Position numbers and translations under genes: made by a program. The notes beneath the pieces are model-generated. The model had not been told where the DNA came from. It ran no database searches and saw nothing but the letters and a program-made list of their open reading frames with translations. A DNA stretch of 64,000 bases from a virus (lineage: Duplodnaviria; Heunggongvirae; Uroviricota; Caudoviricetes), in IMG/VR virus record IMGVR_UViG_3300006226_000014, positions 24,804-88,803 of that record. One strand, written 5' to 3'. Positions 24,537 through 48,467 of this stretch are shown here, one piece after another. The stretch's first letter is position 1. Each line of letters opens with the position of its first letter.

Positions 24537-25393
24537 TATTTCTCCTTAAATAAAACTTTTATATGTGTTGATATATTTATGTCATAATCACATATTTCTT
24601 TTACATAATTTTTCATATATTGTAATGTAAAAGGCTCCCAATAAGTTACACTATATTTAGCATTACCAACTCTATGTAATTTTCTGAATAAGTCTTCTGT
24701 TTTCATATCAAAGTATCGTTCATTTACTTCTCTATCCCAATTATCCCAATAATTCCATTTAGATAATAAATGAATAAGTTCACCATGAGTATCTATTTTA
24801 CCATATATTTTTTCATAAGAGTCTATTCTTTCTTTTCCATTTTCTTGTAATTCTAAGTCTTCTTTTATTTCATTTAACTCATCTTCTAGTATCTTCTTAT
24901 TATAGTCTTTAGCTCTTATTGCCATGTCTCTAATTGAAATATAAGTAAAACCAGAGTTAAATAAATTAGACCAAAATTCTTGTACTTCTTCATCGCTACC
25001 ATAAGAATAAACTTCATGAATTAAAGAATTAGCTGTAATAACTGATGTACCTCTAAATGATCTAATCTTTTCTTTTATCTTATTAAAATCAGTTGTAAAT
25101 GTTACATTACTTTCTTTTACATTTGACTTAGCTCTAGTAATCATATCATCTGATAAGTCATAACCAATATATTCAGCATTTTTTTGAAATGGTAATACAG
25201 CTTTAATAAGTGAGCCTTCTGCACAACCATAATCAACTAATAGATCAAAATCAGATATATGATTTAAGAAAAATATTTTATCATGTATTACTTTATTCAT
25301 ACTAGAATTATATTTTTCTAATTGTTCAGGAGTCATTTTATGATTATCTAAAGCAAATTCTTTTAATCTATATATCTGTTCAAATGTTTTCAT
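24536..25393 (-). CDS. Class I SAM-dependent methyltransferase-fold protein with an MKTFEQIY leader (285 aa).
   Basis: Motif I DLLVDYGCAEGSL; motif II EYIGYDLSDD. Confidence 0.5.
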   Translation of the reverse strand: MKTFEQIYRLKEFALDNHKMTPEQLEKYNSSMNKVIHDKIFFLNHISDFDLLVDYGCAEGSLIKAVLPFQKNAEYIGYDLSDDMITRAKSNVKESNVTFTTDFNKIKEKIRSFRGTSVITANSLIHEVYSYGSDEEVQEFWSNLFNSGFTYISIRDMAIRAKDYNKKILEDELNEIKEDLELQENGKERIDSYEKIYGKIDTHGELIHLLSKWNYWDNWDREVNERYFDMKTEDLFRKLHRVGNAKYSVTYWEPFTLQYMKNYVKEICDYDINISTHIKVLFKEK

Positions 25394-41821: not shown

Positions 41822-42691
41822 ATGAACACAAAAGAGAAATTCACAAATTTTGTCAATTCTGTCTCATCTATTTCACCAGATGATTCTATGCATCAAAGAG
41901 TGCTATCTAATGGAGATATTGAACTCGATATGCCAGATGGAATGGGCGGAAGAGCAAAGGCCGTTTTTAGTACATCACCTACTATAGGGAGAGAAGTTAC
42001 TTATTGGGGTGGATATAACGACGGCAATTTTAATGGAGAGAGCCAACATTATTGGAATGGAGATACTAGTATTCAGACATTTCCTAATACTGTGACTAGT
42101 CCAGATTATGCACCAGGTGGATATGGAAGTGGTGGTAATGGTAATTCTGAACATTGGGTGTTGCCCAACAAACAGTCAGGCTGGAGTAGAACTCATGACC
42201 ATACAATTGTGGGTAGTCCTGATTATGACCGTATTAACATTAAGAAAAAGATTGAAGAATTAGAAAAGTCTATCGAAAAAGTTGTACCTAACAAAATAGA
42301 TAAAGACTTAATAGACACAAAGATTCCTTACAATGTCAAAAAAGACTTAGATGCTAATTTGATCTATATGTTTGCTATTGCTGGTTACAAAGAGAACCAA
42401 ATAGAATTAGTAATGAAGAAAGATGGTCTTCTTCTCAAACTTAAATCAGCACCAGACGACAATGACTTAATAGGCGAAGGCTTTGAGTACTTATGTCATG
42501 GCATAAAAGATAGCGAACAAGAAGTTGGCATCTATTTAGACGTTGACGAATACGAAACAGCCAACTCAGAAGTAGAATTAGACAATGGCATCTTACAGAT
42601 CTTCATACCCAGACGTAAAGAACTGAAGAACAGAATCAAAGTCAAAGCTAAGCCGACTGTAAAAAAGAAGATTGACTTCGAGTTAATCTAA
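41822..42691 (+). CDS. Small heat-shock protein (Hsp20/alpha-crystallin domain) with an N-terminal extension.
   Basis: C-terminal alpha-crystallin domain: DANLIYMFAIAGYKENQIELVMKKDGLLLKL ... LDNGILQIFIPRRKE. Confidence 0.6.
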   Translation: MNTKEKFTNFVNSVSSISPDDSMHQRVLSNGDIELDMPDGMGGRAKAVFSTSPTIGREVTYWGGYNDGNFNGESQHYWNGDTSIQTFPNTVTSPDYAPGGYGSGGNGNSEHWVLPNKQSGWSRTHDHTIVGSPDYDRINIKKKIEELEKSIEKVVPNKIDKDLIDTKIPYNVKKDLDANLIYMFAIAGYKENQIELVMKKDGLLLKLKSAPDDNDLIGEGFEYLCHGIKDSEQEVGIYLDVDEYETANSEVELDNGILQIFIPRRKELKNRIKVKAKPTVKKKIDFELI

Positions 42692-42695
42692 TCAT

Positions 42696-44783
42696 ATGGG
42701 ATTTCAATTTGGAAGCGTCCGACAGCAAGAAAAACCTCGGCAAAACTTACAGAAATTTGACAGTTTACTAAAAGAGCATTGGCAACCAGGTAGCAAGTAC
42801 TATCTGTTTGTAGTTGATAATGTCATTAGTAAGACACATTTAGACATATTAGCAAAAGATATCGAAAAGCATTACATAACGTCATACAACATCGTATCGG
42901 CTATTTCAGTAAAAGATCCAACTAATGATTCTACTGATTCGCTACTATCGTATGAAAGTAACTGGCGGCAATATTTAACATTCAATGATACACCAGCACA
43001 CTGCATAATAGCATTTGGCTCCGTTATCCGTATTCTTAACAGATCCGGTGATGTTACTTACTATGACTTCTTCGATGATAAGTTCAATGATCCGCGATAC
43101 TATTGTGGCAGCGAATTTGTTGATGGTCCAAACAAGTGGATCTATCCAGTAGCACCGGTCAAAGAACTATATCCAGTTCATATCAATAATGATCCAACTA
43201 ATATGCTCACTAGATTCTTTAGAGAGAAACTAGAACGCATACAGCGTGATGATATGTCTACTGACTCATTAGATGTTAGACCATATCAAATCCACTATAT
43301 CGACACAAAAGAGGAAACATCAAAAAGCTTACAGTTACTAATGAATGCTGAACTTTTGGCACTTGATACAGAAACAGATGGCTTAGACTTTCTTGTCAAT
43401 AAGTTAGGCACTGTGCAACTATCAGTTGATGGTGAGAATAGTTATGTGTTTGATTGGGAGAATGTAGATAAGCGCATCTTTAAGAAAGTACTAACAACAG
43501 CAACTCGTATCACATTAGCAAATGCTAAGTTCGATGTTAAGTTCATTTGGAAGAATGGAGTAACTGGATGGTACCCAACAGATGATACGGTGCTCTTGTC
43601 TCATGCGATCAACTCTAATCGTTCTAAGGGTTTGAAGCCAGGTGCAATTTTCTATTGCGGTAAGTTCACAGGATATGATGATGAATTAGACAAAGCGAGA
43701 AAGCAACTCAAGGTTGACAACTTCTTACAAATACCAAAACAGATATTGATCAAATATGCTGGATTAGATGCAATAGTAACTTGGCGAGTTCAAAAAGCTC
43801 TCGATAAGCATGTGGCTTGGGTTGATAAGATGTACCCAAATGAAAAGCTTAAAGAATGGACAATAGAAAGATGGTACCGTGAAGTGATGATCCCAAATGC
43901 TAATACTGTAACGGATGTAGAATTTGAAGGCATTTACTTCGATAAGGATCAATTCGCCATTTCGGAAAAGATCATAGTAGAAAAGATTGCCTCATTGAAA
44001 GATGAACTTAGCAAACTTTGGAATGTGCCAACTACATTTAAGTTCGAGTCAACTAAAGAGCTCGGCTTATTGTTCAAGAGAATGGGTTGGCCGGAAATAG
44101 ACACTGCAAAAGATGGTGGTTACAAAACATCTGATACAGTACTTACTGAATATGAACTATTAGAAAAGGATGCCAAACTGAAAGCTAAGGGCATCAACAT
44201 ATGCGGCATTAAGACATTGAAAGATCTTCGTTCATACAATGTAGCGTTGAAGACATTCATCAATGGATGGAGAGAATGGCTCAGACGGCATCCGGATGGT
44301 TCATGGCGGATTCATCCATCATGCAATACGTTTGGTACTGAATCATATCGTCACGCAATGAGAGATCCAAACTTCCAACAAATACCGAGTGGAAGCACAA
44401 TAGCGCCCCACATTAAGAAACTGTTCACAGTACCAGATAAGAATGATTGGCTATTAGTGAACGCCGACTTTAGATCTTTGCAGTTGATATTAGCATTTTG
44501 TGATTGTGGTATCAATAAGAATGGTGTTGATCCGATTGCTTATAAGATCTATGGACAAGGTGGAACACAAGATGCTCACTCAATGACGACACATAGTGTC
44601 TTTTGTGAACCAGTTCATTTAGAAATCATAGAGATAGAAGATGATGATGGTAATAAGATCATTTTTGGTGAAGAACAGAAGATTAAGATTCTACGAAAAG
44701 GACTTATTGATGATAATGAAGAACTTGTCATTAAGGGTGCTGAGTTCCAAGCAGATGATGTCTTTGTGGAGTACGTATTATGA
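42696..44783 (+). CDS. Family A DNA polymerase, N-terminal part (3-prime to 5-prime exonuclease domain and polymerase through motif A).
   Basis: Exo I LALDTETDGLD. Motif A LLVNADFRSLQLIL. O-helix-preceding DAHSMTTHSVF. Then about 65 aa without homology before the stop. Confidence 0.8.
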   Translation: MGFQFGSVRQQEKPRQNLQKFDSLLKEHWQPGSKYYLFVVDNVISKTHLDILAKDIEKHYITSYNIVSAISVKDPTNDSTDSLLSYESNWRQYLTFNDTPAHCIIAFGSVIRILNRSGDVTYYDFFDDKFNDPRYYCGSEFVDGPNKWIYPVAPVKELYPVHINNDPTNMLTRFFREKLERIQRDDMSTDSLDVRPYQIHYIDTKEETSKSLQLLMNAELLALDTETDGLDFLVNKLGTVQLSVDGENSYVFDWENVDKRIFKKVLTTATRITLANAKFDVKFIWKNGVTGWYPTDDTVLLSHAINSNRSKGLKPGAIFYCGKFTGYDDELDKARKQLKVDNFLQIPKQILIKYAGLDAIVTWRVQKALDKHVAWVDKMYPNEKLKEWTIERWYREVMIPNANTVTDVEFEGIYFDKDQFAISEKIIVEKIASLKDELSKLWNVPTTFKFESTKELGLLFKRMGWPEIDTAKDGGYKTSDTVLTEYELLEKDAKLKAKGINICGIKTLKDLRSYNVALKTFINGWREWLRRHPDGSWRIHPSCNTFGTESYRHAMRDPNFQQIPSGSTIAPHIKKLFTVPDKNDWLLVNADFRSLQLILAFCDCGINKNGVDPIAYKIYGQGGTQDAHSMTTHSVFCEPVHLEIIEIEDDDGNKIIFGEEQKIKILRKGLIDDNEELVIKGAEFQADDVFVEYVL

Positions 44784-44941
44784 GTATCTTCAAAATAGTA
44801 AATGGTGAAAAGAAACCAATAGTTGGTCTGAAATTAGTCAATGCCCAAGAAGAAGATAGAAAAATGATAGAAAAGCTTAAAGAAGAACTTGAAAGAAAAG
44901 ACAGACTTATTAAGTACTTACAGGAGTTAGTTAATCTATAA
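44780..44941 (+). CDS. Small coiled-coil ORF (53 aa) lying between the two DNA polymerase parts.
   Basis: ATGA overlap with the polymerase-N stop. Open to TAA 44939-44941. ATG of polymerase-C at 44944. Confidence 0.35.
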   Translation: MSIFKIVNGEKKPIVGLKLVNAQEEDRKMIEKLKEELERKDRLIKYLQELVNL

Positions 44942-44943
44942 TT

Positions 44944-45825
44944 ATGTATAAGATAACCAAACGATCAATAACGATAGACGACTTTCTCAAGTTGAAGAAC
45001 TTCCCGCCATTCAAGAAGATGCGTTCAAATGGGAAGACGCTAAATCTAGCAACTATCTTTGCGTGCACTGGCCCAACTTTGGGCAGACAAATGAAAGGTG
45101 CTGGCTTCTCAGAACACGATTGTGATTTGACTATTGAGACATTCAACTTAGAGAATGCATACAACACAGCATTACGTACAACCAAAGATAAGACGCCATT
45201 AGAACTCAAGTACATCATAGTAGGCAATAAGCTTAGAGAACTGTTCTTCCAAACATATCCCGGTCTATTAGACAGAGTGAATAGAGAACAACAGTTCGCA
45301 ATGAAGCACGGCTATGTTAGAACCTGGACCGGGCCAGTGAGACACTTTCCAGAGTTCCGCTATATGAAACGAAACATCAATGGAAATCTAATAGGAGTTG
45401 ATCAAAAACTGTATAGTAAGATGTTTGCCGGTATGAAGAATGAAGCTAGCAATACTTCAATTCAGACTGCTGAAGTCTATCAAGCAATGCCAGACTGTAC
45501 TGCAACTAATGTGCTGTTGAAAGAATGGGGATTGAAAAGTCGACTTTACAATTATGTGCACGATTCATTATCATTGTATGTGTACAAACCAGAAGCTAGA
45601 TTGATATATGCATTATTGAATCGACTATCATTAGAGCATAGAGAGCCATACTATGATCTGCGTATGTACATTGATGTAATAGAGGCTGACTTAACTAATC
45701 CAGAACATTACTATGACAAAGGAAAAGAGATCAATATCGAAAACTATGATTTAGATGAAGAACTCACCTCATGGAATGCAGAACATGGAACTAATTTAGT
45801 ATATAAGGAGTTGATACCAAAATGA
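44944..45825 (+). CDS. Family A DNA polymerase, C-terminal part (motifs B and C).
   Basis: Motif B RSNGKTLNLATIFACTGP (RxxxKxxNFGxxYG-like); motif C YNYVHDSL. Confidence 0.8.
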   Translation: MYKITKRSITIDDFLKLKNFPPFKKMRSNGKTLNLATIFACTGPTLGRQMKGAGFSEHDCDLTIETFNLENAYNTALRTTKDKTPLELKYIIVGNKLRELFFQTYPGLLDRVNREQQFAMKHGYVRTWTGPVRHFPEFRYMKRNINGNLIGVDQKLYSKMFAGMKNEASNTSIQTAEVYQAMPDCTATNVLLKEWGLKSRLYNYVHDSLSLYVYKPEARLIYALLNRLSLEHREPYYDLRMYIDVIEADLTNPEHYYDKGKEINIENYDLDEELTSWNAEHGTNLVYKELIPK

Positions 45826-45995
45826 GATATCTAATTTCAATGGCAGTTGCACTGTTCATCATATTTGGAATATCACTCATTATTGTTCCAGTTGTGCTAG
45901 CTATTCTTTTTCAGACACTTTGGTACATGTTAATATGGGTATTACCAATAGCACTTATAGTCGGCTTGATTAGGCTATTGACTGATTTAGTATGA
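45822..45995 (+). CDS. Small membrane protein (57 aa, two transmembrane helices).
   Basis: ATGA overlap with the polymerase-C stop; hydrophobic throughout. Confidence 0.4.
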   Translation: MRYLISMAVALFIIFGISLIIVPVVLAILFQTLWYMLIWVLPIALIVGLIRLLTDLV

Positions 45996-46109
45996 AAAGC
46001 AGATGTGTCGGCTGTAAGGCTGAGTGTGAAGATAGAGACTCACTTACACTAGACGAGAAAATAGAGGTAGTTGTAACAGATTGTAGCAACTTTACGAAGG
46101 AGAAGAAGA

Positions 46110-46529
46110 ATGATACAGTGGGACGAAAGCAAAGACAACCCAGTGAACATAAAGATACGTAAGATATGGGCAGCAGAAACATTTGAAGAATGTCAAACAC
46201 TTTGTAGAGAGCTATTTGAATTAGGTCATACAGATGGCCAACAATATGTGTGGGCTGTCAGAGCTGGTGACTTTACCGGACACAAGATAACTGAGCATGG
46301 AAAAGAAATGGCTAAAAAGTTAGGTCAAACTGAAGAGGAGTTCTTAGGCATTGATACTAACAAGTTCGAAAAGGTTGGAGATGAATGGGTACTCAGAAAG
46401 ACTCCAATAAAAGATGAGACGATAACTGTTACTAACAATAGCAACATTCAACAATATGTCGAATTTGATAACGGCAAATTCAGATTGAAGGAGAGACCAT
46501 TTGATACGGACAACAATAAGACGCAATAA
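46110..46529 (+). CDS. Hypothetical protein (139 aa).
   Basis: Strong SD GAAGGAGAAGAAGA before the ATG. Confidence 0.55.
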   Translation: MIQWDESKDNPVNIKIRKIWAAETFEECQTLCRELFELGHTDGQQYVWAVRAGDFTGHKITEHGKEMAKKLGQTEEEFLGIDTNKFEKVGDEWVLRKTPIKDETITVTNNSNIQQYVEFDNGKFRLKERPFDTDNNKTQ

Positions 46530-46845
46530 GAAGCACGCTACATCATCATTCTTTGATGATATCAGATTGCTACGACGTTCTAGGTTTGATACTGACTATC
46601 GAGACTTAAAGAATGGTATGGCCTTCGATGTTGGTAAGTTGCAATTAGCATATGCTGCACAGGAGATCATATTGTGGCGACGTGGTTGTATGGAGTTATC
46701 TGACTACATCAATAGATTGCCAAATGATCAGTTGAAAGATTTAGTAGCTGACTATATGGGAGAAGACTGGACAGAAGACAAAGAGCCAGTTGCAATAGAG
46801 ACACATGATAAGTTTATCGCAGATCCAGACAACGAAGAGGCTTGA
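46501..46845 (+). CDS. Hypothetical protein; start uncertain (the track uses TTG).
   Basis: Track ORF; first in-frame ATG at about 46618. Confidence 0.35.
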   Translation: MIRTTIRRNKKHATSSFFDDIRLLRRSRFDTDYRDLKNGMAFDVGKLQLAYAAQEIILWRRGCMELSDYINRLPNDQLKDLVADYMGEDWTEDKEPVAIETHDKFIADPDNEEA

Positions 46846-47176
46846 GAATCCACAAACATTAGTTGACTATTTTGAATCTATTAGTGACAGAAATCGAATT
46901 ACTGATCATCTAATAGAGCCAATAAAGAAATGCGACTTTCTTCTGAGTAGATATCCAAAACGTATTAGGAGTGATATATTAGCTCTTCTGAAAAGAGGGG
47001 CTGTGATGTCTTCCAGTCAAAAGATGGAAAAAGTTGCTGAAGATCATCTAAGAGAATTTGTCAAACTTCAAAAACAAAATGACACTTTGAAGAAAGAGCT
47101 TGCTGAACTTAAGAACAATAGGTCACTCGAAAAACGTCGTTTAGAACTATTAGAAAGTACTCATTTGTTTGACTAA
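46805..47176 (+). CDS. Hypothetical coiled-coil protein (123 aa).
   Basis: Track ORF. Confidence 0.45.
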   Translation: MISLSQIQTTKRLENPQTLVDYFESISDRNRITDHLIEPIKKCDFLLSRYPKRIRSDILALLKRGAVMSSSQKMEKVAEDHLREFVKLQKQNDTLKKELAELKNNRSLEKRRLELLESTHLFD

Positions 47177-47220
47177 TACTTAAGGAAATATATCTGTTGG
47201 AATAAAAATAACTAATTATT

Positions 47221-47904
47221 ATGAATTATAGAGAAATATATCTAAAAATAATTATTAGTACTCAAAAACAAAATAGAAAAAAAGTTCGTGGTAAAAATCA
47301 ATACTATTATGAAAAACATCATATATTACCGAAATCTTTATTTCCTTTATGGAAAGATAGAAAAAGTAATTTAGTTATTTTAACCGCTAGAGAACATTTT
47401 TTCTGTCATCAATTATTATGTAAAATCTATCCGTCAAGATCAATGTATAATGCATTATGGCGATTATCAACTGATGGAAGAAGAAAAATAACTTCAAAAG
47501 AATATGAAAGAATAAAAATTAAAAGATCTGAATTATTATCTCAAAAAAGAGGATATAAAAGACCACCTTTTTCAGAACAATGGAAACAAAATATAAAATT
47601 AGGAAGACAAAAACAAATAATAACAGATGAACACAAACAAAAAATTAGTGATTGGGCAACAAAATGTAAATGGTATAATAATGGAATAAAAGAAACTTTT
47701 TGTGAAATAATGCCAAAAGGTTATAAAGTTGGAAGATTACCTGGCTTAAATAACACTAAAAAAGTATTTTGTGTAGAATTAAATAAATCATTTAATAGTT
47801 TAAAAGAAGCTTCATTAGTTACAGGAGCAAACTATACTAAAATATGTGAAGTATGTAGAGGTTCACGAAAACAGTCTGGTGGCTATACTTGGAAATACAT
47901 TTAA
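47221..47904 (+). CDS. HNH homing endonuclease with NUMOD-type DNA-binding modules.
   Basis: YYYEKHHILPKSLF ... SNLVILTAREHFFCHQ (HNH). SEQWKQNIKLGRQ and TDEHKQKISDWA (NUMOD3-like). C-terminal GANYTKICEVCRGSRKQSGGYTWKYI. Very AT-rich and free-standing. Confidence 0.7.
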   Translation: MNYREIYLKIIISTQKQNRKKVRGKNQYYYEKHHILPKSLFPLWKDRKSNLVILTAREHFFCHQLLCKIYPSRSMYNALWRLSTDGRRKITSKEYERIKIKRSELLSQKRGYKRPPFSEQWKQNIKLGRQKQIITDEHKQKISDWATKCKWYNNGIKETFCEIMPKGYKVGRLPGLNNTKKVFCVELNKSFNSLKEASLVTGANYTKICEVCRGSRKQSGGYTWKYI

Positions 47905-48467
47905 TATTTTATAATTTCTCTTCTTAATGCCATCTGATGTACTGTTTCAATTAATTCTGGTGGTAGATTTTCTGTTGGAATCGTGGCCTTACACTTATTC
48001 ATAATCATTTTGTGCATACCAAATGTGCCTAATAGTTCCTGAATTTCTATTGGAATGATAATCGGATACTTTTGTGCTTCATCTAACATAATACGAAATA
48101 GCAAATCTTTCACATTTATGTCAAACTCAAATGGTATCTGTAAGGTGTAGAACTTTTCTTGTGCGTCATCTTCAAATGCTGATACTAATGATGTCAACGA
48201 CCAAGCTCGAGTCTCTGGATCAACATTGACTTTACGATATGGAACATCTGTTAGTGGTGGGAATACAGCTGATATGACATCACATGAGTCTACTATTATG
48301 CTTATCTTATCGCCTTCAAATGTATTGCGTGGACGTATTCTAACACAGTCAACTGGAGTGTCTATCCAATAGAGATTAGTTCCATCTATCAGTTTTCGTC
48401 GTAAATTATCTTGCTTCATACCTAATCTAGATTGAAAAGATGAAACTCTCATACGGTCAAAGTTCAT
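47901..48467 (-). CDS. Hypothetical protein (188 aa).
   Basis: ATG at 48465-48467 preceded by TACTAATTAAT. The track extends it to a TTG at 48488. Confidence 0.5.
   Translation of the reverse strand: MNFDRMRVSSFQSRLGMKQDNLRRKLIDGTNLYWIDTPVDCVRIRPRNTFEGDKISIIVDSCDVISAVFPPLTDVPYRKVNVDPETRAWSLTSLVSAFEDDAQEKFYTLQIPFEFDINVKDLLFRIMLDEAQKYPIIIPIEIQELLGTFGMHKMIMNKCKATIPTENLPPELIETVHQMALRREIIKY

Follow-up and report, generated by a model that had tools for sequence, protein, structure and literature searches.

Archaeal family B DNA polymerases occur in split form, with or without a split intein. Among phages, the family B polymerase of phiKZ (a chimallivirus) consists of two proteins, DNAP-N and DNAP-C, which form a stable non-covalent 1:1 complex and are separated by a break in an insertion domain that the two proteins make up jointly (PMC13648687); a split Pol III alpha has also been described in jumbo phages (PMC7824862). 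T4-like phages contain "genes in pieces"—exemplified by Aeh1 nrdA, split by mobE, and by the split gp43 polymerase of Aeromonas phages (both cited in PMC2677866). In addition, Dassa et al. 2009 (PMC2677866) described fractured genes carrying split inteins together with a free-standing endonuclease, with later loss of the endonuclease and uncoupling of the halves. For family A polymerases (PolA), Czernecki et al. 2023 (PMC10201439) called the exo|pol split of T7-like, S-SBP1-like phages the first in PolAs, and other phages with a "split DNA polymerase" include cyanophage metagenome-assembled genomes (10.1101/325100) and the OM43 phages MEP401/402 (PMC10580990). Here, we describe a PolA divided within its polymerase domain between two open reading frames (ORFs), encoded in a stretch of 64,000 nucleotides (nt) from a member of the Caudoviricetes (positions 24,804 to 88,803 of IMG/VR record IMGVR_UViG_3300006226_000014; hereafter, the window), and compare it with its relatives in other viral contigs (loci and proteins are designated by L and P numbers, respectively).

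The ORFs at 42696-44783 (+; piece 1, 695 residues) and 44944-45825 (+; piece 2, 293 residues) together encode a single family A polymerase, of which they are complementary halves in colinear order. Along the 381 positions of Pfam DNA_pol_A, piece 1 matches positions 8-168 and piece 2 matches 239-355. The PHROG 17 profile is divided likewise: piece 1 covers positions 637-1048, the match ending exactly at its residue 636, and piece 2 covers positions 1057-1242 from its residue 22 onwards, with about 8 profile positions between the halves. Moreover, an AlphaFold2 (AF2) model of the concatenated pieces, computed from an unpaired alignment (A4) of 13 piece 1 and 5 piece 2 homologs, aligned with Klenow, the Bst large fragment and phage G20c Pol I over 750-870 columns (E about 1e-17), with parts of the fingers and palm modeled at low confidence. 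At the DNA level, the window had no match among known phages, and the closest known phage Pol I shares only some 25% protein identity with the enzyme.

Piece 1 comprises an N-terminal alpha/beta domain, a 3'-5' exonuclease, the thumb, palm motif A, helix N and a C-terminal tail, with Pfam matches to exo1 at residues 200-373 and to DNA_pol_A at residues 424-600. The exonuclease domain scores above its own cutoff (PF01612, E 1.4e-12), and its motifs span 43365-43772 (+): ExoI DTETDGL at 43365-43385 (residues 224-230), ExoII NAKFD at 43521-43535 and ExoIII YAGLDA at 43755-43772. Motif A, LLVNADFRSLQL, is located at 44451-44486 (+; residues 586-597, with the catalytic Asp591), and a helix-N-like segment, DAHSMTTHSVF, at 44571-44603 (+; residues 626-636) contains the last polymerase-homologous residues of piece 1. 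Piece 2 supplies the O-helix/motif B, the rest of the fingers and palm motif C. Its motif B, RSNGKTLNLATIFA, at 45022-45063 (+; piece 2 residues 27-40), includes R722 and K726 (concatenated numbering), with Leu730 at the position of E. coli F762 and F734 at that of Y766, and motif C, YVHDSL, at 45553-45570 (+; piece 2 residues 204-209), provides the other catalytic Asp (H901 and D902). The break is located in the fingers, after helix N and before the O-helix, and leaves the exonuclease, the thumb and motif A all on piece 1. In the window, piece 1 is followed by an ATGA overlap, a 53-codon ORF, a 2-nt gap and the ATG of piece 2. A preliminary description of this stretch had recognized one PolA in two ORFs flanking a 53-codon ORF, and the colinear division of the profiles bears it out. 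The description had also placed the break between the O-helix region and motif B; the interruption between motifs A and B stands, but the counterpart of DAHSMTTHSVF in E. coli Pol I is the helix N region, and it is motif B that forms the O-helix.

The catalytic residues D591, R722, K726, H901 and D902, spread over both ORFs, are all invariant in 14 genome-matched pairs of homologs (36-72% identity). In the first searches of a large protein collection, piece 1 retrieved 58 family homologs at 33-68% identity—573-714 residues long, plus one of 889 residues with a larger N-terminal piece and some fragments—and piece 2 retrieved 46, the complete ones being 289-337 residues long. All of these homologs were split, and none joined both parts, down to 35% identity. 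Altogether, the split is shared by about 100 relatives, counted as cluster representatives, at 35-77% identity and with intact catalytic motifs; by sequence comparison, it is ancient and clade-wide, not recent. The same protein (P0001) was present on two contigs, with JGI and ENA as their sources, and the same break recurred in dozens of independent metagenome assemblies; hence, the split is not an assembly artefact. Related contigs reach 200-386 kilobases (kb), which places them in a jumbo-phage lineage.

As we read the alignments, the break falls inside a small inserted module, not in polymerase sequence proper. The upstream half of this module is the acidic, beta-rich tail of piece 1 (44604-44780, +; residues 637-695, 59 residues), and the downstream half is the basic N-terminus of piece 2, MYKITKRSITID, at 44944-44979 (+), which begins with MYKITKR. 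The tail is kept in every homolog that breaks at this site, and its identity to L001 (70%) compares with 68% for the rest of the protein. G652 and D688 of the tail, as well as I699, R702 and D708 in the start of piece 2 (MYKITKRSITIDDF), are invariant in the 14 pairs mentioned above. Where the preliminary description had seen about 65 residues with no polymerase homology, there is thus a conserved 59-residue module half. The net charge of the tails ranges from -1 to -11 (-11 in the window), and that of the first 12 residues of the next piece from 0 to +5. AF2 predicted five beta strands over residues 644-693, with a block-mean predicted local distance difference test (pLDDT) score of 64-82. 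A Pfam search with the tails and with unbroken modules returned no family, and profile searches of the PDB with the module gave nothing significant. When a hidden Markov model (HMM) of the tail was run against every ORF of the window and of 55 fetched loci, only polymerase pieces matched; within the sequence examined, the module is thus peculiar to the polymerase and does not serve split genes in general. One alignment of a Serratia phage Pol I that seemed to reach into the tail was judged spurious.

The module is also found at a second position. Most piece 1 homologs (44 of the 58) end earlier, just before motif A (site 1, as opposed to site 2, where the window enzyme is broken), with a tail of similar pattern; site-1 and site-2 tails are homologous (hhalign probability 94.9%, E 4.7e-8, 44 columns). 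Locus L005 encodes a three-piece polymerase, in which a site-1 tail ends piece 1 and the middle piece is a separate 120-residue gene product that starts with MLKIEKAKSDW, holds motif A and helix N and ends in a site-2 tail. A HMMER search with residues 560-695 yielded about 30 distinct middle pieces of 96-145 residues, most of them starting with M-x-K-I-x-K. Other members of the family are less fragmented: P0159 and P0173 are unsplit polymerases of 1065-1071 residues, with a hairpin of about 30 residues at site 2 and nothing at site 1; P0202 is split at site 1 only and keeps its site-2 module unbroken (tail, 12-residue linker and HKIVKKVRRELTIHDF); and the enzymes of P0155, P0158, P0169, L051 and L017 are split at site 2 only, with an unbroken site-1 module. 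In unbroken modules, the tail, a linker of 12-35 residues and the K-I-x-K segment are continuous. The break therefore corresponds to the linker inside the inserted module, and the start of the downstream gene corresponds to an internal module segment. Two individual cases may be added. P0165 (491 residues) has a motif B/C piece (1-302) fused upstream of a motif A and tail piece (368-475), as either a circularly permuted fusion of the pieces or a gene-calling artefact, and at L021 (2111-4172) piece 1 is itself present as two overlapping ORFs (421 and 274 residues), owing to either a sequencing frameshift or a further break.

Taken together, we consider it probable that the replicative PolA of this uncultivated jumbo-phage clade is made as permanently separate subunits that assemble non-covalently with the aid of the module. 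Piece 1 would contribute the N-terminal domain, the exonuclease, the thumb and the motif A aspartate, and piece 2 would contribute motif B and the motif C aspartate; because the two aspartates reside on different pieces, neither piece could polymerise by itself, and activity would require post-translational assembly. The acidic tail and the basic MYKITKR start are predicted to meet by charge attraction and to complete one small fold, and the joined module halves would then help the non-covalent docking of the subunits—two here, and three in many relatives. We infer both the physical assembly of the pieces and the docking role of the module from sequence patterns. That the polymerase works as two subunits was one of two possibilities raised in the preliminary description, and it is supported by the relatives, which encode the pieces separately.

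This arrangement resembles that of phiKZ in that a replicative jumbo-phage polymerase is encoded by two genes, the break lies in a lineage-specific insertion and the catalytic aspartates are divided; a non-covalent complex is predicted here as well. The two systems differ in polymerase family and in the nature of the insertion, which in the family B enzyme of phiKZ is a large helical element of the palm and here is a beta module of about 70 residues in the fingers; furthermore, the description of phiKZ mentions neither a second homologous break site nor three-piece forms. S-SBP1-like phages likewise encode a family A polymerase in two genes, but their split separates whole domains, the exonuclease from the polymerase, which is the only kind described so far in family A. 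Here, the cut goes through the polymerase domain, separating motif A from motif B, and some relatives have another cut ahead of motif A. The present case is set apart by a cut inside the family A catalytic domain that leaves the active-site aspartates on different polypeptides, together with a second homologous cut site, giving three-piece enzymes, and the association of both cuts with one small repeated module. In addition, a single clade holds unsplit enzymes, enzymes cut at either site or at both and, possibly, a permuted fusion (a single called protein). A limited literature search found no description of such an arrangement. The clade offers a natural series for studying how essential enzymes tolerate fragmentation, and the module, with its about 60 + 10 residues, is a candidate for a heterodimerisation tag of natural origin, possibly useful in protein engineering. 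For annotation, the middle pieces of 100-145 residues and the C-terminal pieces of about 300 residues should not be labeled as truncated or as pseudogenes.

Among the alternatives, the one that survives best, though we regard it as unlikely, is that the pieces assemble through the ordinary palm/fingers interface and that the module serves elsewhere, e.g., in contacts with a helicase or a clamp-like factor or in DNA binding; the coincidence of module and break would then mean only that surface insertions tolerate breaks. Structured insertions in the fingers or thumb of PolA enzymes do often bind partners or DNA (PMC10201439), and unbroken modules exist. Several observations weigh against a docking role and in the same direction. 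The unsplit relatives hold only a short hairpin at the same site, so the full module is not required by the polymerase and could have another role. AF2 left the N-terminus of piece 2 undocked on the tail, with pLDDT below 50 for residues 695-710; this junction is weak evidence either way, because the alignment was unpaired and contained only 5 piece 2 sequences. Conversely, both independent breaks fall at the same position of one homologous module, with an acidic tail on one side and a basic M-x-K-I-x-K start on the other in each case, a pattern that is hard to explain if the module is irrelevant to the break.

A further reservation concerns motif A. In E. coli Pol I, Glu710 is a residue involved in sugar discrimination. 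Its position is occupied here by Gln596, which is invariant, together with D591, in the 14 paired sequences; the substitution may alter nucleotide selectivity, and the enzyme may have properties differing from those of a standard PolA. Motif A of the window reads DFRSLQ, and some distant relatives have SLE instead.

With regard to the origin of the module, we entertain, as a rather unlikely possibility, the idea that it derives from split inteins that had inserted at two conserved sites, immediately ahead of motifs A and B. In this scenario, the catalytic half would have been lost, i.e., the N-terminal ~50 residues with Cys1 and TxxH plus blocks F/G with the His-Asn pair, and the association half would have been kept, namely the acidic second half of the N-intein and the basic first strand of the C-intein. 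Such a dead half-intein, maintained as a non-covalent docking device, would allow an essential enzyme to persist in 2-3 pieces while its genes drift apart—a new evolutionary fate for inteins, if true. Split DnaE inteins show similar electrostatics, the upstream half being acidic and the downstream half basic, and their C-intein starts (MIKIATRK in Npu DnaE and MVKVIGRR in Ssp) resemble MYKITKR. Both sites abut catalytic motifs, which is an intein-like trait, and the break sits where inteins hold their endonuclease or split naturally. In a comparison with six split inteins, the module profile could be aligned colinearly (hhalign score 23.2, P 0.0013, probability 19%), set against maxima of 14.4 and 18.1 in column-shuffle controls; the tail alone gave P 0.13. 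Inteins made up 5 of the 19 sub-threshold PDB matches of the tail profile, and the tail-plus-start profile matched none in the PDB. At E up to 10, none of seven module sequences was matched by the Pfam models Intein_splicing, Hint and PT-HINT, whereas a positive control, the intein of P0192 with its endonuclease region removed, scored 1.6e-8 with Intein_splicing. P0192 (1065 residues) carries this genuine intein, with a LAGLIDADG endonuclease, in its ExoII motif (N|C...SN|CKFD). The derivation of the module from an ancient mobile element, namely a split intein, is suggestive but unproven.

If the intein were instead still active, the tail and the MYKITKR start would form an unusually small split intein that ligates the pieces and excises itself, a possibility that we consider very unlikely. 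The weak colinear match, the inteins among the tail's sub-threshold hits and the presence of a real intein elsewhere in the family would all fit, as would the first residue of the tail, which is often Cys or Ser. This residue, however, is not conserved (C in 10 of the 14 sequences and V, S or Q in the others, with I in L014), and the tail lacks TxxH, the equivalent positions reading G-E-E-Q or N-S-x-Y. The start of the downstream piece contains neither a terminal His-Asn nor a conserved C/S/T at +1: after MYKITKR comes S, E, A, R, K or D, followed directly by polymerase sequence. The absence of these catalytic residues, a module of about 70 residues—half the size of a Hint domain, which takes at least 130—and the lack of any Pfam intein or Hint match thus speak strongly against trans-splicing. 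The same considerations separate the present case from the fractured genes of Dassa et al. The likeness extends to an N-part with a C-terminal extension, a variable ORF and a C-part with an N-terminal extension, and the gene-breaking model proposed there is matched by the series found here, with halves that are adjacent, separated by cargo or dispersed and breaks that adjoin conserved catalytic motifs. Still, given the missing intein catalytic residues, the small module and the lack of a significant intein profile match, ligation is not expected.

The second possibility raised in the preliminary description, some form of recoding, and the related case of RNA splicing would yield a contiguous polymerase from one mRNA by frameshifting, readthrough or intron removal. 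We find this explanation hardly credible, chiefly in view of how the pieces are arranged in relatives. Some phages do have group I introns in polA (cited in PMC2677866). Loci L001 and L044 have nothing between the two genes, which share 8 nt, and piece 2 is read in the +1 frame; the sequence there, TATGTATAA, codes for Y-V-stop as well as for M-Y-K, so that a +1 shift could fuse the pieces in these two loci; L009 has an 8-nt gap with nothing inside. As a general mechanism, however, +1 frameshift fusion is rejected by the other arrangements. A gene for IspH/LytB lies between the halves in L002 and L031, two small ORFs in L008 and a Cys-rich 100-residue ORF in L027. In L006 the order is reversed, with part 2 directly upstream of part 1, and in L004, L014-L016 and L018 the pieces are kilobases apart, with one on the opposite strand. 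Other genes intervene in L005, L014 and L004, some of them on the opposite strand, or the distance exceeds 10 kb. Intervening genes, reversed order and scattered pieces exclude recoding and cis-splicing as the general mechanism. In the window itself, a translated-looking 53-codon ORF stands in the third frame between the pieces, and an E-value scan of 42000-48000 with Rfam showed no intron or ribozyme. Reassignment of TGA/TAG was rejected as well, since readthrough of the TGA of piece 1 meets a TAG five codons on. A promoter/terminator scan found nothing above chance; given the tight packing (the ATGA overlap and the 2-nt gap) and the lack of a promoter or terminator signal between them, the three ORFs of the window are probably co-transcribed and translationally coupled. 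The IspH/LytB genes (isoprenoid pathway) belong to two different lineages, one at L002, L003, L013 and L030 (7085-7927 in L002 coordinates) and the other at L031 (3179-4054).

Finally, that the polymerase is a decaying pseudogene, broken by an insertion and replaced in replication by another enzyme, is scarcely tenable: the gene is interrupted and motif A has Gln in place of the usual Glu, but full-length ORFs and all catalytic residues are kept throughout the roughly 100 cluster representatives, the tail is conserved as well as the core, the gene packing implies expression, and this conservation argues that the polymerase is functional.

The 53-codon ORF in the window (44780-44941, +) overlaps the stop codon of piece 1 with its own start (ATGA), lies in the third frame relative to both pieces and has a coiled-coil-like C-terminal half. 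DNA alignment with L001, L044 and L009 delimits about 168 extra nt in the window; from alignment A7 and the junction sequences, the insertion extends approximately from 44774 to 44943 (+), with TTATG on both flanks. The encoded 53-residue protein belongs to no Pfam or PHROG family and has no intein or homing-endonuclease signature, and no relatives were found in viral contigs or in the 55 fetched loci. The most plausible view is that the ORF is unrelated, lineage-specific cargo inserted where the two genes meet, a boundary that is a recurrent insertion slot in this clade. The preliminary description had interpreted the interruption as the scar of a degraded mobile element. Compared with the closest relatives, the 53-codon ORF does represent an insertion, but the break is ancient and conserved and not a recent scar, as L001, L044 and L009 have the same two-gene arrangement without any inserted remnant. 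The start of the ORF (44780-44820), MSIFKIVNGEKK, loosely echoes M-x-K-I-x-K, which could be coincidence or mimicry of the docking segment.

A small ORF of unknown function also stands between the two polymerase genes of the OM43 phages MEP401/402. The "genes in pieces" of T4-like phages share with the present locus an essential replication enzyme in adjacent ORFs whose gap sometimes holds a gene; their halves reassociate without splicing, and reassociation is predicted here. In those phages, however, a homing endonuclease gene occupies the gap and the event is restricted to particular lineages. The ORF in the gap of the window encodes no endonuclease, relatives carry different cargo, and the break, linked to a conserved module, extends over the whole clade. 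The window does encode a free-standing HNH homing endonuclease (47221-47904, +; phrog_655, E 6e-42) with a NUMOD-like C-terminus, located 1.4 kb downstream of piece 2 and outside the gap between the pieces.

Some minor features of the locus complete this picture. In the thumb region of piece 1 (44166-44204, residues ~491-503), a lineage-specific insertion of about 13 residues, KDAKLKAKGINIC, is missing in all aligned relatives. The first 200 residues of piece 1 (42696-43290) form an alpha/beta domain modeled with a pLDDT of about 90 and without a Pfam match. This N-terminal domain is kept across the whole family, unsplit members included; fusions of UDG to PolA exist elsewhere (PMC10201439). 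The remainder of the window encodes mostly unknown proteins, plus a DNA ligase, ThyX and the homing endonuclease. Just upstream of piece 1, a gene at 41822-42691 (+) encodes a protein with an Hsp20-like C-terminal half (phrog_432, E 7.7e-8), and an Hsp20-like gene holds the same position in relatives (L001, 5266-5991; L002, 4242-4985).

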